Shown: positions 14,693 through 42,372 of the stretch, piece after piece
How the letters are laid out: every line of letters begins with the position of its first letter
How positions within the stretch are numbered: the stretch's first letter is position 1
Origin: a virus
IMG/VR virus record: IMGVR_UViG_3300025809_000014
Location: 1-64,000 of that record
Direction: 5' to 3' (one strand)
DNA length: 64,000 bases
Notes under the pieces: generated by a model
What the model saw: only the letters and a program-made list of their open reading frames with translations
Told to the model about the DNA's origin: nothing
The model's database searches: none
Made by a program: the position numbers and the translations under genes

Positions 14693-15106
14693 TTATATAT
14701 TTAACTTGTATTTATCTATAAGATATTCTCGTATCTCATTTATTTTTTTATACTTGTAGATATCAGATTCTACATTAGCATGTTCATCAGCTGTCAAAAG
14801 TATAATATTTTCTTTAAGATTCCTAAATTGTGGGTATTTACTTTTAGGAAGTATATGATGAAAATACAAACTAAGCGCTTCTTTACCTAGATATGCACCA
14901 CTCACTTCAGATTTATGAGGTCTTTCTTTCCAAATCTCTTTGAATGTTATATGGTCTGTGTTTGGTTTGGATTTACCAACATTAACTTTACTTTTAAGAG
15001 CTAATGTTGGTTTTTTAAATCCCCTGTTGCCAGACAGTTGTTTTCTAGGCTTATGTTGGAAACAATACTCAGAGTCTGAGTTCTTTCCACATACTAAACA
15101 TTTCAC
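14693..15106 (-). CDS. HNH-type endonuclease with N-terminal Zn ribbon
   Basis: CLVC..CFQH; HHILPKS...NIILLTADEH. Confidence 0.7.
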   Translation of the reverse strand: MKCLVCGKNSDSEYCFQHKPRKQLSGNRGFKKPTLALKSKVNVGKSKPNTDHITFKEIWKERPHKSEVSGAYLGKEALSLYFHHILPKSKYPQFRNLKENIILLTADEHANVESDIYKYKKINEIREYLIDKYKLNI

Positions 15107-16260
15107 AGATCAGATGCATCAAATAGGTCAGGTGATAACACTTGAGGAGCAGTCACTTCTATATCTTTTGCTGCTTCATAATGTATACCGTCATTACCAT
15201 TCTGTCCTATAATATTCATCCTTTCATCGTTTTCTACAATTGGTTCTGGTTCTACTTCAGGTTCTTCTTCAATGCCTTTAATTGCAGAAACTAATGTAGA
15301 TTTTATTGTATCAAAGAAGTTTACATCTTCTAACACCATTTGTTTAAATTCTTCTAAGTCATACTTTACACCGTCAAATGTATACGTTTTACCATACTTA
15401 CGACCTAACTCAAAATCATGTAGCATTTGTAACGCTTCTCCCACTCTATCTATACCTATACCATATACAATATCAAATTGATGCTTCTGGTATGGAGGTG
15501 TCATCTTATTTTTTGTACATCTAACCTTAGTAATGTTACCGTACACATCTTGACCATCCTTTGCTAGTGACCTACTAACTTCTATTCTTACATCAGAATA
15601 AAACTTTAGTGCATGACCACCTTGTGTAGTTGTAGGATTTCCAAACATAACACCAATCTTTTCTCTATATTGAGAGATTACTATAAGACATGTGTTTGTA
15701 TTATGTGCAATAGACTTTAGTTTTGGGTAAGCGCTACTATTTAATCTAGCCTTCTTACCTATTGCATGTTCTCCTACTTCTCCATCTAATACAGCTTTAG
15801 GTATTAATGATGAGTCTGAATCTATAATAATAAGATCCACTTCTCCAGATGACATTAACTCTACAGCAATGTTAAAACCTTCTTCTCCAGATGATGGTTG
15901 TGCAATTAACATACTTCCTGTGTCAACACCTAGAGCTTCAAAGTAATTCTTATCAACAGCATGCTCGCCATCAATATAAACTACTTTACCTCCTTTAGCT
16001 TGAGCGCTAGCTACAGCATGTCCACATATAGTAGATTTACCTGTACCTTCCCAGCCCATAAGCTCGTACATTTTACCTTTTGCAAAACCACCTATCCCTA
16101 AGGTGATCCAATCGAAACCTATTGATCCTGTACTAATTAGATCATAGTCCCCTCCTGTTTTACTGTTTAAAGCTAATACAGTACCTTGACCATATTGCTT
16201 GTTTAACTTTTCCAGCGCATCCTGGAATTTATTCCCTGTTTCTTTCAGCTTTTTCGCCAT
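15103..16260 (-). CDS. recA: RecA recombinase
   Basis: ISTGSIGFD, GWEGTGKST (Walker A), YIDGEHA, QYREKIGVMFGNPTTTQGGHALKFY. Confidence 0.95.
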   Translation of the reverse strand: MAKKLKETGNKFQDALEKLNKQYGQGTVLALNSKTGGDYDLISTGSIGFDWITLGIGGFAKGKMYELMGWEGTGKSTICGHAVASAQAKGGKVVYIDGEHAVDKNYFEALGVDTGSMLIAQPSSGEEGFNIAVELMSSGEVDLIIIDSDSSLIPKAVLDGEVGEHAIGKKARLNSSAYPKLKSIAHNTNTCLIVISQYREKIGVMFGNPTTTQGGHALKFYSDVRIEVSRSLAKDGQDVYGNITKVRCTKNKMTPPYQKHQFDIVYGIGIDRVGEALQMLHDFELGRKYGKTYTFDGVKYDLEEFKQMVLEDVNFFDTIKSTLVSAIKGIEEEPEVEPEPIVENDERMNIIGQNGNDGIHYEAAKDIEVTAPQVLSPDLFDASDL

Positions 16261-16283
16261 ATTTAATTGTTTTAAATTATATT

Positions 16284-16315
16284 CAAATATACTAAAATCT
16301 ACTCTATTTTACAAG
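16284..16315 (-). promoter_or_regulatory. Bacteroidota-type promoter for the recA operon
   Basis: CTTG-N20-TATATTTG on the minus strand. Confidence 0.7.
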
Positions 16316-16316
16316 C

Positions 16317-16348
16317 AAAAAAAGGCCTTAGATTTCTCCAAGGCCCCT
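16317..16348 (-). terminator. Intrinsic terminator
   Basis: GGCCTTGGA-GAAA-TCTAAGGCC followed by T7 on the minus strand. Confidence 0.85.
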
Positions 16349-16399
16349 TTCACAATTAAAAACAGAACAGAAATATTTAATTCAAATCTTGTACCCCCA
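16317..16399 (-). ncRNA. Candidate ~83-nt small RNA
   Basis: Lies between a consensus promoter (16405-16436) and a terminator; no ATG-initiated ORF; carries a 16-nt complement of a phage translation-initiation region. Confidence 0.5.
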
Positions 16400-16404
16400 C
16401 AGTT

Positions 16405-16436
16405 CAAAGTTATAAAATGTATTTCAAACTACCAAA
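16405..16436 (-). promoter_or_regulatory. Bacteroidota-type promoter driving the candidate sRNA
   Basis: TTTG-N20-TAACTTTG. Confidence 0.7.
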
Positions 16437-16476
16437 CTAAATTTGTTAGAAGCTTACATTTTTATAATTAACTTAG

Positions 16477-18105
16477 TTAGCCCTCACAACTTGCACACTC
16501 TAAAATATTACGTGCAAATGCTTGTGCAGAACTTTGACTGAACTGATAGTAAAGAGTTTTAACACCCTCATCATGAGCATAAAGATACAATTGATTTATA
16601 TCTTTAGCTGGTACACTAGGATCTATCATAAGGTTCAAGCTCTGTGACTGATCAATAAACTTTTGTCTTTGCGCAGCCTGCAGAACTATTTCCTTAGGAC
16701 TAATCTCTATAAATGATTTGAATACTCCCTTTGTAGGGAATTTTAAGTGTTGGACAGACCCATCTTTCTTTAAGATAGACTCCCAAGTTTCATCGTTATT
16801 AAGATCATACTTCTCAAGCTCAGCCTCTAAGAAAGGATTCTTATAAACTGTCTTACTCTTAGCGAGATCTTTAATAAAGTAGTTAGATTTTATTGGTTCA
16901 ATACCCATAGACACTGCACCGTGTATAAACGAACTAGATTTAGTTGGTGCTATAGCCATTAGTGTAGTGTTAGCATAACCTTCTCTAATTGATGTGTACC
17001 CTTTGGCATCATGTAGCCATTTAGATGCATTTTCTGTACGTTCTTTTAACGTCTTAAAAATCTGATGGTTAAGTTGTTTAGCTTCCAGTGATTCAAACTC
17101 TATAAGTTTAGACTGAAACAAGGAATGATATCCTAATACACCAACTCCAATAGCTCTATGTTCTTTTGCAAATCTATATGCTCTTCGCATACCAGGAAGA
17201 TGTTCTGCTTTCTGAACAAACTCATTCATTACAGCGTTCAGGAACAATACATAGGTTTCTACAGCATCTGTTTCTTTAATCTCATCCCAATGTAAAAGAT
17301 TTATAGATCCTAAGCAACAAACAAAACTATTAAAGCTGTCTGTTGGTAGTTGTATCTCACTACACAAGTTACTTGCTGTAACTTCATACCCAAGCTCCTT
17401 GTAAGGAGATGTCTCGTTGTTTGAATTATCTTTAAACATAATGTATGGAAACCCAAACTCATTACGTCTTTGTATAATCTTAGCCCATATCTTACGCTTT
17501 TCTTTACTACCAGCTTTCATACTCTTCAACCATGCATCACCAACTGTGACACCATATTGAAGATTCTGAATAGGGTTACCCTCTGTACCAATATCTAGAA
17601 ACTCTTCTATATCTGCATGCTCTACAGGTAAATACACTGCACATGCTCCACGTCTAGCTGCAGATTGTTTACACACATCTACAACTGTGTCATACATTCT
17701 AGCATAATGTATAGGGCCATCAGCTTCTCCTCCAGTACTAATTTTAGTACCTCTTGGTCTAATATTACCTAAATAAGCACTGGTTCCTCCACCATATTTA
17801 CTCATCATACCTATCTCACGGCCTGCATTTAATATACTATCTAGTGTGTCATCCACATTAGATCCATAGCAACTGATAGGTAAACCTTTTTGTTTACCAA
17901 AGTTAATCCATACAGGTGTTGATAGTGAATAGTATCCTTTTGCCATGTAGTCTTCAAACTTGCAGGCAAAGTCTTTAATAGCTAAATACTTTTCAGCAAT
18001 ATTAGCTATGTCTCTTACTCTTTGTTCAGGAGATTCATCTAAATACCCCCTGGACAAGAATGTTCTACTGTCTTCATTGAGCCAGTAATATCTTTTATAT
18101 TCCAT
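16477..18105 (-). CDS. nrdA: Class I ribonucleoside-diphosphate reductase alpha subunit (no ATP cone)
   Basis: LSTPVW, PISC, GGGT, ASNLCSEI, AIAPT, DQSQSLN, KTLYY, C-terminal CASC. Confidence 0.95.
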   Translation of the reverse strand: MEYKRYYWLNEDSRTFLSRGYLDESPEQRVRDIANIAEKYLAIKDFACKFEDYMAKGYYSLSTPVWINFGKQKGLPISCYGSNVDDTLDSILNAGREIGMMSKYGGGTSAYLGNIRPRGTKISTGGEADGPIHYARMYDTVVDVCKQSAARRGACAVYLPVEHADIEEFLDIGTEGNPIQNLQYGVTVGDAWLKSMKAGSKEKRKIWAKIIQRRNEFGFPYIMFKDNSNNETSPYKELGYEVTASNLCSEIQLPTDSFNSFVCCLGSINLLHWDEIKETDAVETYVLFLNAVMNEFVQKAEHLPGMRRAYRFAKEHRAIGVGVLGYHSLFQSKLIEFESLEAKQLNHQIFKTLKERTENASKWLHDAKGYTSIREGYANTTLMAIAPTKSSSFIHGAVSMGIEPIKSNYFIKDLAKSKTVYKNPFLEAELEKYDLNNDETWESILKKDGSVQHLKFPTKGVFKSFIEISPKEIVLQAAQRQKFIDQSQSLNLMIDPSVPAKDINQLYLYAHDEGVKTLYYQFSQSSAQAFARNILECASCEG

Positions 18106-23592: not shown

Positions 23593-23613
23593 TTTTAATT
23601 GTTTTTAATTGTT

Positions 23614-25940: not shown

Positions 25941-26237
25941 TTATTTATTTATTAATTCTTGTTCTCTTTTTACTAACCAGATTGATTTCCATACAAAATC
26001 AAATCTCACCTTTTCTTTATCATCTGCATGCTTAACTCCAAACCTACTGTTAATTCTATTACATATAGCTGATGTCCATACCATACAAGGATTACCCTGC
26101 CAATCTTTAGATTGTTTTTGTTTTGGAGGTCTTACAATTTGCATGTAGTTGAGGTCTACACCTCGTACAATCACTTCATCTCCTACTTGGAGATCTTCCA
26201 TTTTAATGGGCCTATTTACTTCTTTAGTCATTTCCAT
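25941..26237 (-). CDS. Hypothetical SH3-like protein
   Basis: DLQVGDEVIV; loosely similar to the neighbouring ORF (LEPGDEII, FVWKSIWLV vs LNWKQIYIT). Confidence 0.6.
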   Translation of the reverse strand: MEMTKEVNRPIKMEDLQVGDEVIVRGVDLNYMQIVRPPKQKQSKDWQGNPCMVWTSAICNRINSRFGVKHADDKEKVRFDFVWKSIWLVKREQELINK

Positions 26238-26565
26238 ATTTATTAGTTATATATATTTGTTTCCAGTTTAAATCCACTTTTTTTATTGGATCGTTTTCAT
26301 TAGGTACTCTGAACTCATACGTTTTGTAAGTATTAGTCCAAGGTTTATTAGTCCAAGTATTCATACCTGAAGCTGTCTTCTCTACCATAGCAACTCTACA
26401 CTTTACAGCTATGTATCGTGTTTTACCGTTATGCCATGTTTTTAATTTACTAACTCGTGGAATCTCCTCCACTACGTAATATCTCATCTCTGAGCCTTGG
26501 TTAGTAATAATTTCATCTCCTGGTTCTAATACACCAGGATCGTCTGTTAATGTTCCTCTAATCAT
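26224..26565 (-). CDS. Hypothetical SH3-like protein
   Basis: Track ORF; probable start MIRGTL at 26565 after an A-rich leader. Confidence 0.6.
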   Translation of the reverse strand: MIRGTLTDDPGVLEPGDEIITNQGSEMRYYVVEEIPRVSKLKTWHNGKTRYIAVKCRVAMVEKTASGMNTWTNKPWTNTYKTYEFRVPNENDPIKKVDLNWKQIYITNKYGND

Positions 26566-26585
26566 TTTTCTGTTTTTAATTGTTT

Positions 26586-27308
26586 TTAAAATGGATCTTC
26601 TGCATCTTTTAGCCAATTGATGCTATATCCGTTATTTTCATAAATTAATGTATCCACTTTTGTGAACACACCTTCACTGTCCCAATCAACTCCTTTATAA
26701 GAAGCACTAGCTGGGTGACTTACAACAAATGTGTGAGCAAATATTCCTGCATACCTTTTGTATCGTCCAGCATCTTTACCAAGAAAGACATATGGTACAC
26801 CTAGTGGGTTGAGAACTTCTTCAAACAAATACTTTGTGAAAGGTTCCCAATTAGCTATATGACTACCAGCTTTGTTCTTCTCAGTAGTCAGTGCTACATT
26901 AAGCATTAGTATTCCTTGCTCTGCTAGATAGGCCACGTTAGGAGATGGATCATAGCTTAGATTAAGCCCTCTGTGAAACTCAGTCTCAAGTGCATTGTAA
27001 AATTGCTTTAGAGAAGGTTGTACATATTCTGTCACTGAGCACCCCATAAGCAAACCATCTGCCACAGGTAGTCCGTTCTTAAATGTGTGATATGGACACA
27101 TGCCCACAATCACTGCCTTCACTTCATCTAGTGGTGTTTCTTTAAAACATCTATAGACTTGAGATGACAAAGGAGCAATCTGTTTGCCCCTCTTACTCTC
27201 TTTCTTTAAGAATGCATATATATCATCGCACTCATTACTTTCTATAAATGTTTTCATTTTTCCATGCCACGATGGATGAAAGTGTTCTTTAAAATTATCC
27301 CATTTCAT
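26586..27308 (-). CDS. ung: Family-1 uracil-DNA glycosylase with atypical catalytic motifs
   Basis: VKAVIVGMCPYH, A.GL, PSL, LAEQGILMLN.ALT, AGSH...WE.FT, SHPAS. Confidence 0.85.
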   Translation of the reverse strand: MKWDNFKEHFHPSWHGKMKTFIESNECDDIYAFLKKESKRGKQIAPLSSQVYRCFKETPLDEVKAVIVGMCPYHTFKNGLPVADGLLMGCSVTEYVQPSLKQFYNALETEFHRGLNLSYDPSPNVAYLAEQGILMLNVALTTEKNKAGSHIANWEPFTKYLFEEVLNPLGVPYVFLGKDAGRYKRYAGIFAHTFVVSHPASASYKGVDWDSEGVFTKVDTLIYENNGYSINWLKDAEDPF

Positions 27309-35732: not shown

Positions 35733-35756
35733 TTTTCTGGTTTTTAATTATTAATA

Positions 35757-42226: not shown

Positions 42227-42372
42227 TTTGTTTCTGTTTTTAATGGATTAATATTTGTCATAGGGGGCTACCCCAATGCTCCAATTTTTACGTGGGGTCT
42301 CTGAGGGGGAGGGGTCTCCTATGTTACACACACGATGGGGTGGGGCGTTTTTAAAAAAAAGTTTTCAGAAAA

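Follow-up and report, generated by a model that had tools for sequence, protein, structure and literature searches.

A probable small regulatory RNA, complementary to A-rich translation start regions, between nrdA and recA of an uncultured Bacteroidota-type phage

In an uncultured phage of the Bacteroidota type, nrdA and recA, both on the - strand, are separated by a gap of 216 nt (nrdA ends at 16477 and recA starts at 16260) in which a promoter is followed by a terminator without a gene between them. What is selected in such a unit, if not a protein, and on what might its transcript act? We analysed the locus in a window comprising the whole stretch of DNA under study, the initial 64 kb of an IMG/VR virus record of 97.7 kb, and in its relatives among viral contigs. 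Judging from these comparisons of sequence, the unit is probably a small regulatory RNA.

Anatomy and ancestry of the unit

The original prediction had described a promoter, an ORF-free stretch, a GAAA-loop terminator about 80 nt away and a separate promoter for recA, and all of these sequence claims hold. In the direction of transcription, the features between nrdA and recA are:

16405..16436, - strand: promoter of the Bacteroidetes type, with TTTG at 16436-16433, a 20-nt spacer and the -7 box TAACTTTG at 16412-16405
16374..16404, - strand: remnant of a DUF5522 gene, with bits of the CCGG codons, the last codons and the stop, and no ATG
16352..16373, - strand: U-rich block (the putative seed) of 22 nt, single-stranded and conserved, with its most invariant core at 16367-16352
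16317..16350, - strand: intrinsic terminator, with a 9-bp stem (16345-16337/16332-16324), a GAAA loop (16336-16333) and U7 (16323-16317)
16298..16310, - strand: post-terminator stretch within the spacer of the recA promoter, with 10 Watson-Crick and 3 G-U pairs possible with 16371-16359, in read-through RNA only
16261..16291, - strand: -7 box (TATATTTG, 16291-16284) and leader of recA, with the leader motif ACAATTAAA at 16270-16262

The promoter corresponds to the -33/-7 motif described for Bacteroidetes (PMC7366714), and the RNA would start near 16400. The full pattern TTTG-N20-TAACTTTG is found 11 times in the 97.7-kb genome, four times in intergenic positions. No ATG lies between the promoter and the hairpin, and the ORF list yields there only a 32-aa frame with a TTG start inside the -7 box. 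The arms of the hairpin (GGCCTTGGA and TCTAAGGCC) enclose the GAAA loop and are followed by T7; the block is unpaired in both the single-sequence fold and the consensus fold, the former of which also forms the terminator. A sigma-70 promoter scan is inapplicable to a Bacteroidetes-type promoter, and its terminator scan missed the hairpin; both were replaced by our own pattern scans. Under a strict definition, the genome has seven intrinsic terminators, and only the one at 16345-16317 has an upstream -7 box without a gene, no further unit of the same kind being detected in the 97.7 kb by this strict terminator scan. A search against all Rfam families gave no match at the gathering threshold (BjrC68 with 20.2 bits versus 39, MIR1514 with 22.2 versus 90).

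The relatives of this locus indicate where the unit came from. A search with RecA retrieved 80 related loci, with RecA identities from 99% down to ~68%, most of which have the same block, then a hairpin and a T-run, 5' of recA. The exact block occurs in 72 of 2.9 million viral (IMG/VR) contigs, as a single copy in each, and every copy precedes a terminator-type T-run. In half of these contigs (36 of 72), an ORF of 54-61 aa ends directly before the block, and it is gone in the other 36. The 55-aa ORF L002:2715-2882, taken as the intact reference, belongs to Pfam DUF5522 (PF17653, E 1.8e-13), and the ORF carries a CCGG-x-CRHCPY motif in the relatives. Its ATG lies 4 nt past the -7 box (L002:2680-2882, also L005 and L029), so that the DUF5522 mRNA would be leaderless or nearly so.

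An intact DUF5522 ORF with the Cys-rich motif is absent from the window, which retains fragments of it only at 16404-16374. This remnant is one of at least seven structurally different ORF-less alleles among the relatives, which comprise remnants of 29-34 nt without ATG, a 9-aa stub, a 13-aa stub, and a decayed frame of 92-96 nt with or without ATG. In all of them, the -7 box and the terminator have been preserved together with the block and the final codons of the former gene, and the distance from the -7 box to the block is either 29-50 nt or 92-96 nt. Such repeated loss of the ORF with retention of promoter, block and terminator points to selection on the transcription of the block rather than on the protein, and constitutes in our opinion the strongest argument for the RNA as the putative selected product.

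Conservation of the block and its linkage to recA

We assessed conservation on an alignment of 31 distinct variants of the locus, in which the mean pairwise identity is 0.90 for the block, 0.67 for the stems, 0.52 for the spacer and 0.38 for the 3' flank. For comparison, recA reaches 0.86 at codon positions 1 and 2 and 0.60 at position 3. RNAalifold identified 14 stem pairs, eight of which show compensatory double changes, and the distance from block to hairpin is constant at 3-8 nt. The block is thus kept as letters and the hairpin by compensatory changes, which shows that selection maintains the structure of the stem and the sequence of the block. Judged by this alignment, purifying selection on the block is strong, exceeding that on recA codon positions 1 and 2, and the promoter, the seed and the terminator are all three kept in relatives, as expected from the original prediction. 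That prediction had missed the decayed DUF5522 tail, the linkage to recA in relatives, and the cis partners that the block has in some of them (see below).

The distribution of the block is restricted. No DNA match was found in the GenBank phage collection, in which the RecA relatives are all below 60% identity. The 21-23-nt target sense of the block gave three chance matches only in 185,579 reference genomes (596 Gb), in unrelated contexts and with no hairpin. Given only these three unrelated matches, we rejected an attachment core, a prophage copy and a host target that is both long and conserved.

Within the clade, recA lies downstream of the block in 69-70 of the 72 contigs, despite mosaic surroundings. 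The locus of the window (15103-16476) is itself mosaic: its recA DNA is 96% identical to that of L003 (L002 being an identical row in the tree), loci that combine a T6 block with an intact DUF5522, and its intergenic unit is of the L019/L026 type, with a T5 block and a decayed ORF. The recA gene and the intergenic unit thus have different ancestry, which places a recombination joint near the recA start. A subgroup of loci (L048, L055, L060, L064 and L073) has an additional 150-300 nt of non-coding sequence separating the terminator from recA, with more hairpins and promoter-like boxes, as well as a CCTCAAC stretch past the T-run that is complementary to the end of the block region.

Complementarity to leaders, and its rival explanations

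The antisense segment and its targets were at the centre of the original prediction, which listed a 16-nt complement at ATG 26565, a 13-nt complement at 42232-42244, 13 nt in the rIIB leader and an imperfect match at 35735-35750; we found all four in the sequence. The leaders concerned are:

26566..26585, - strand: leader of orf113, the best predicted target, a 20-nt spacer between the stop of a UDG-like gene and ATG 26565
23593..23612, - strand: leader of rIIB (assigned by PHROG 609), with two overlapping matches of 13 nt (23612-23600) and 11 nt
35733..35749, - strand: leader of orf88 (ATG 35732), with 10 contiguous nt (35749-35740) and flanking pairs
42227..42244, - strand: leader of the first gene of the leftward block, with 13 complementary nt (42244-42232), 5 nt before ATG 42226

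The 16-mer 16367-16352 is the exact reverse complement of 26568-26583, ending 2 nt before ATG 26565, and a match of 12-16 nt is kept in the orthologous orf113 leaders of 24 loci. Upon cofolding, the orf113 leader gains -16.1 kcal/mol, compared with -6 to -9 for background leaders, the orf88 leader -13.0 kcal/mol and the rIIB leader -12.5 kcal/mol. Matches of 10 nt precede ATG 31535, 21612 and 40129, as one does ATG 35732 of orf88, and the matches other than that of orf113 lie 0-11 nt from start codons. The 13-nt complement in the leader of the first leftward gene is also present in G002. The head gene of the leftward block at the same position has 19 complementary nt in G005 and 18 nt in its relative G016, a link that is positional; the 19-nt match in G005, whose RecA is ~71% identical, is perfect and lies 2 nt before the start of that gene.

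Several features of these leaders and genes may be added. The orf113 spacer (26566-26588) in the window and in L158 holds an extra 10 nt relative to most relatives, which looks like a tandem duplication and extends the complementarity with the block from 12 to 16 nt. The orf113 protein itself (26224-26565, 113 aa) has a mean column identity of 82% among relatives, belongs to no family in Pfam or PHROG, and yields an all-beta AlphaFold model of low confidence (pLDDT 59.5). In the 5' UTR of the first leftward gene (42245-42330, - strand), the A-rich leader is preceded by C-rich tracts and a GC-rich hairpin, and these are kept in L160-L167, with proteins that are only ~60% identical; the contigs behind L160 and L164-L167 are fragments without recA.

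Whether such complementarity exceeds what AT-rich DNA offers by chance depends on how it is counted. Contiguous matches do exceed it. With up to three mismatches allowed, the 16-mer has 11 matches versus 3.1 expected; 13 leaders have at least nine contiguous complementary bases, versus 1.8 +/- 1.7 in 500 block shuffles; and the longest contiguous run is 16, versus 9.3 in shuffles. When the number of matched leaders is compared with that of all genomic 23-mers, the block ranks in the top 0.03% in G000, G002 and G004, and in the top 0.5-8% in G001, G003, G005 and G008. Duplex energies with G-U pairs allowed do not exceed it: averaged over the best 5 or 10 leaders, they do not improve on those of shuffled U-rich blocks (p 0.16 and 0.36, respectively). 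In cofolding, only orf113, orf88 and rIIB stand above the background, and most other listed targets gain -8 to -10 kcal/mol. Since contiguous matches are enriched but energies are not, only the top few targets stand out, rather than the whole list. The discrepancy arises because motifs of the ACAATTAA type are common to leaders throughout the ten genomes examined, two of which lack the block, so that any antisense copy of a typical leader would match many leaders. The block may be regarded as being, in effect, just such an antisense copy of a typical leader.

These counts also bear on an explanation of the locus by which the hairpin would only be the terminator of nrdAB (formerly of DUF5522) beside a leftover promoter, and the complementarity a chance product of AT-rich sequence. 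The hairpin does end the nrdA transcription unit in the window, and A-rich leaders facing a U-rich block, with energy statistics that are not significant, are what this explanation predicts. A plain terminator, however, needs no conserved 22-nt block upstream, let alone one that outdoes the coding positions of recA while the stem drifts. Neither does it call for a -7 box kept in at least seven independent ORF-less alleles, nor for contiguous matches far beyond shuffles and genomic 23-mers. We therefore consider this explanation disfavoured and very unlikely.

We then ranked start regions in seven genomes and combined the ranks by orthogroup. The orf113 leader came first (geometric mean percentile 0.077, family-wise p 0.03), followed by rIIB (family-wise p 0.08) and rIIA. 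This signal comes mainly from G000, G001 and G002. G003, G004 and G008 have an unaltered block, but in them the leaders of orf113 and rIIB come no higher than 20-30% in the ranking, and the complete genomes G018 and G019 hold no 17-mer target with two or fewer mismatches. The near-invariance of the block in genomes with such weak targets implies that phage targets alone do not explain it.

This invariance would fit a reading in which the block serves a protein or nuclease as an RNA signal instead of being a pairing seed, as a binding site for an RNA-binding protein of host or phage or as a determinant of 3'-end stability or processing before the DUF5522/nrdAB terminator, with the antisense likeness as a by-product of U-rich facing A-rich sequence. 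The constant gap of 3-8 nt to the hairpin would suit a composite protein site, and an energy-based complementarity no better than that of shuffled U-rich blocks would be expected. Such a signal leaves unexplained, however, the perfect matches of 16 and 19 nt located 2 nt before starts in two distant phages, the equal lengths of T-run and A-run described below, and the fact that joining the two most frequent leader motifs gives the exact antisense of the block; moreover, no candidate protein is known. On this evidence, we find it fairly unlikely.

The run lengths concern the orf113 leader. In 15 of 17 contigs, the T-run of the block and the A-run of the leader have the same length (5/5 or 6/6). 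On the trees, this covariation amounts to two or three independent changes, all concordant, which are too few for significance, and the sign test, with two independent pairs, was not significant. The two loci may also have moved jointly in one recombination block. In L036, the block carries an A-to-G substitution at which pairing with its leader is preserved as a G-U pair, which fits RNA-RNA pairing and not a shared DNA site.

The latter observation is relevant to a further explanation, in which the block would be a DNA site (an operator, a replication origin, a packaging site or an attachment core) present in both orientations. As a double-stranded site has no strand, its inverted copies would resemble antisense matches, and compensatory changes in flanking inverted repeats would suit a palindrome as well as a hairpin. 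All leader copies nevertheless share one orientation relative to the genes, several of them lie between cistrons and far from promoters, and G-U-compatible differences (three in the flanking helix of the window, and others in L036, L076 and L015) keep the pairing in the sense RNA only. The host copy that an attachment core requires is lacking from the reference genomes scanned, and genome ends with terminal repeats lie elsewhere. A DNA site thus seems most improbable. A packaging or end site in particular was rejected, the relatives with terminal repeats having their ends elsewhere.

The constant position next to recA raises the question of whether the block might act on its own transcript. 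In the lambda phage, sib/tI provides a case of retroregulation, and in T4 hairpins hide the start regions of genes e, soc and 49. On read-through RNA, the block could likewise mask the recA start as in the T4 genes, so that recA would be translated only from its own promoter between the two arms, or it could form a long stem of the sib/tI type that marks the RNA for cleavage. The likeness to these systems lies in the order of the elements, one arm preceding a terminator and/or promoter and its complement following, which is clear in L011, L071 and the L065 type. Next to the linkage itself, several observations favour such a role in cis. The recA leaders of block-bearing phages hold a 9-12-nt complement (in the window, the 9 nt of ACAATTAAA are complementary to the block's 3' part), and the block of each lineage fits its own recA leader better than permuted ones (p ~0.001, uncorrected for relatedness). 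Matched lineage-specific changes of block and recA leader are seen in L071, L081 and L079, and the helix between the two forms in the folds of L015, L070 and L081. Beyond the terminator, the pairing of the downstream stretch with the block far exceeds that of shuffled sequences in L011 (z -7.6), L071 (z -4.2) and L065/L076 (z -2.6/-2.1), with a compensatory change between L065 and L081.

The window itself shows little of this. The T4-type layout, with a promoter between the block and the arm at the recA start, is present, but the recA-leader match of 9 nt has 1.8 expected pairs in the ensemble and its helix is not formed in the fold; in the sib/tI-type layout, in which the terminator lies within a longer read-through stem, the post-terminator helix has a z of -0.94, no better than shuffles. 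In contrast to the lambda and T4 systems, in which it would find its models, this pairing is thus not significant in the window, and its arms are not conserved as a pair, the upstream arm being constant and the partners varying. A strong terminator should moreover leave little read-through. Partners that vary from lineage to lineage, and that pair now with one part of the unchanging block and now with another, cannot account for the conservation of all 22 nt. We therefore treat pairing in cis as a possible second layer and deem it unlikely as the main function.

An extreme form of the arrangement is seen at L011:2860-3000 (genome G003), where ~26 nt after the terminator form an almost perfect inverted copy of the block that overlaps the recA promoter. 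In read-through RNA, this copy would give a long stem around the terminator (duplex of -21 kcal/mol). L071 has the same design with a different sequence.

Proposed function and nearest known systems

We propose that the unit 16436-16317 (- strand) encodes a trans-acting anti-leader sRNA, a reading to which we give about an even chance on present sequence evidence; the signal for a protein and the fold-back in cis are its live rivals. The existence of a selected RNA element is well supported by the comparisons above, and we infer from them its production as a discrete species, its pairing in the cell and the resulting repression. Leaders of Bacteroidetes are A-rich, and translation is sensitive to their structure (PMC6847099). 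A non-coding RNA of ~85 nt would be made from a host-type Bacteroidetes promoter and ended by the intrinsic terminator, with the unstructured 22-nt U-rich block adjoining the hairpin as its working part. The block would pair with a small number of mRNAs of the phage itself, at start regions that are A-rich and lack a Shine-Dalgarno sequence: first of all at the orf113 spacer, then at the leaders of rIIB, orf88 and the gene heading the leftward block, and probably at that of recA. By masking the region needed by the ribosome, this pairing would lower the translation of the target genes. The RNA would have arisen as the 3' untranslated tail of the small leaderless DUF5522 gene, whose coding part has decayed here, leaving the RNA function.

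Seen against this proposal, the parts of the original prediction fared differently. The idea of a self-contained, non-coding RNA unit whose single-stranded segment is functional receives strong support from the conservation of the block, the covariation of the hairpin and the loss of the ORF in relatives. As for the complementarity, claimed to be better than chance, this stands for contiguous matches against shuffles and 23-mers, and fails for duplex energies against shuffled U-rich blocks. Pairing with A-rich initiation regions is moderately supported for orf113, rIIB, the first leftward gene and orf88. A timed shut-off of early genes finds no support: the promoter has a host-type consensus and would be active together with the targets. 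An RNA made alongside its targets suggests tuning rather than a switch.

More broadly, the unit may represent a clade-confined family of phage sRNAs derived from the DUF5522 tail that acts as a general anti-leader, reading many phage and possibly host leaders and tuning or shutting their translation, an RNA counterpart of T4 RegA/RegB in an Hfq-less phylum. This wider reading is tentative and, to our mind, rather doubtful. In T4, RegA is a repressor protein and RegB a nuclease, and both act on the start regions of the phage's own early and middle mRNAs. The likeness consists in a phage product acting on the translation starts of a set of its own mRNAs; the proposed agent here is an RNA, however, and the recognised element an A-rich leader instead of a Shine-Dalgarno region. 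Another parallel is offered by the enterobacterial 3'UTR-derived or dual-function sRNAs, such as CpxQ and SgrS, in which the seed lies in the 3' end of an mRNA and the terminator is shared. Similarly, the RNA would be both mRNA of a small protein and carrier of the seed in 36 contigs. What sets the present unit apart is a natural series, in which the coding part was lost at least seven times and the seed unit persists.

Among phage RNAs, the c4 RNA of P1 and P7 is cut from the same transcript as its target and controls one operon (icd/ant) for immunity. It resembles the proposed RNA in being a phage RNA that uses short single-stranded segments against the ribosome-binding region of a phage mRNA and thereby blocks translation. 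The present unit differs in having its own promoter, several predicted targets 5-26 kb away and no match to the C4 family of Rfam. The c4 antisense RNA is cited in a recent review (PMC12197685; Citron and Schuster, 1990). On the side of the hosts, the closest parallel is GibS with the trans-encoded sRNAs of Bacteroides thetaiotaomicron (PMC7366714). These share with our unit the Bacteroidetes-type promoter, the intrinsic terminator and the low GC content, as well as a long, conserved and unstructured seed laid across Shine-Dalgarno-less initiation regions in a phylum without Hfq or ProQ (PMC7366714). In contrast to GibS, the present unit is phage-encoded, has no sequence or Rfam relation to it and descends from the 3' tail of a small-protein gene; its seed is directly before the terminator, rather than at the 5' end as in the GibS type, and its predicted targets are mRNAs of the phage itself. 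Although the GibS-type and c4 RNAs are its nearest known systems, the unit belongs to neither family.

Post-transcriptional control in Bacteroidota is poorly known. We found no description of a phage-encoded regulatory RNA in phages of this phylum, and none is given in a 2025 review (PMC12197685). If the block proved to act in cis or as a site for a protein, the element would still be a strongly selected RNA signal tied to recA expression in ~70 phage genomes. If the trans-acting reading is true, this RNA would show how, in hosts whose ribosomes ignore the Shine-Dalgarno sequence, translation can come under viral control through occlusion of the A-rich leader itself. It would also provide a natural series leading from the tail of an mRNA to a free-standing sRNA, with a coding part that decayed at least seven times, as well as a compact and portable pair of repressor and leader for genetic tools in Flavobacteria.
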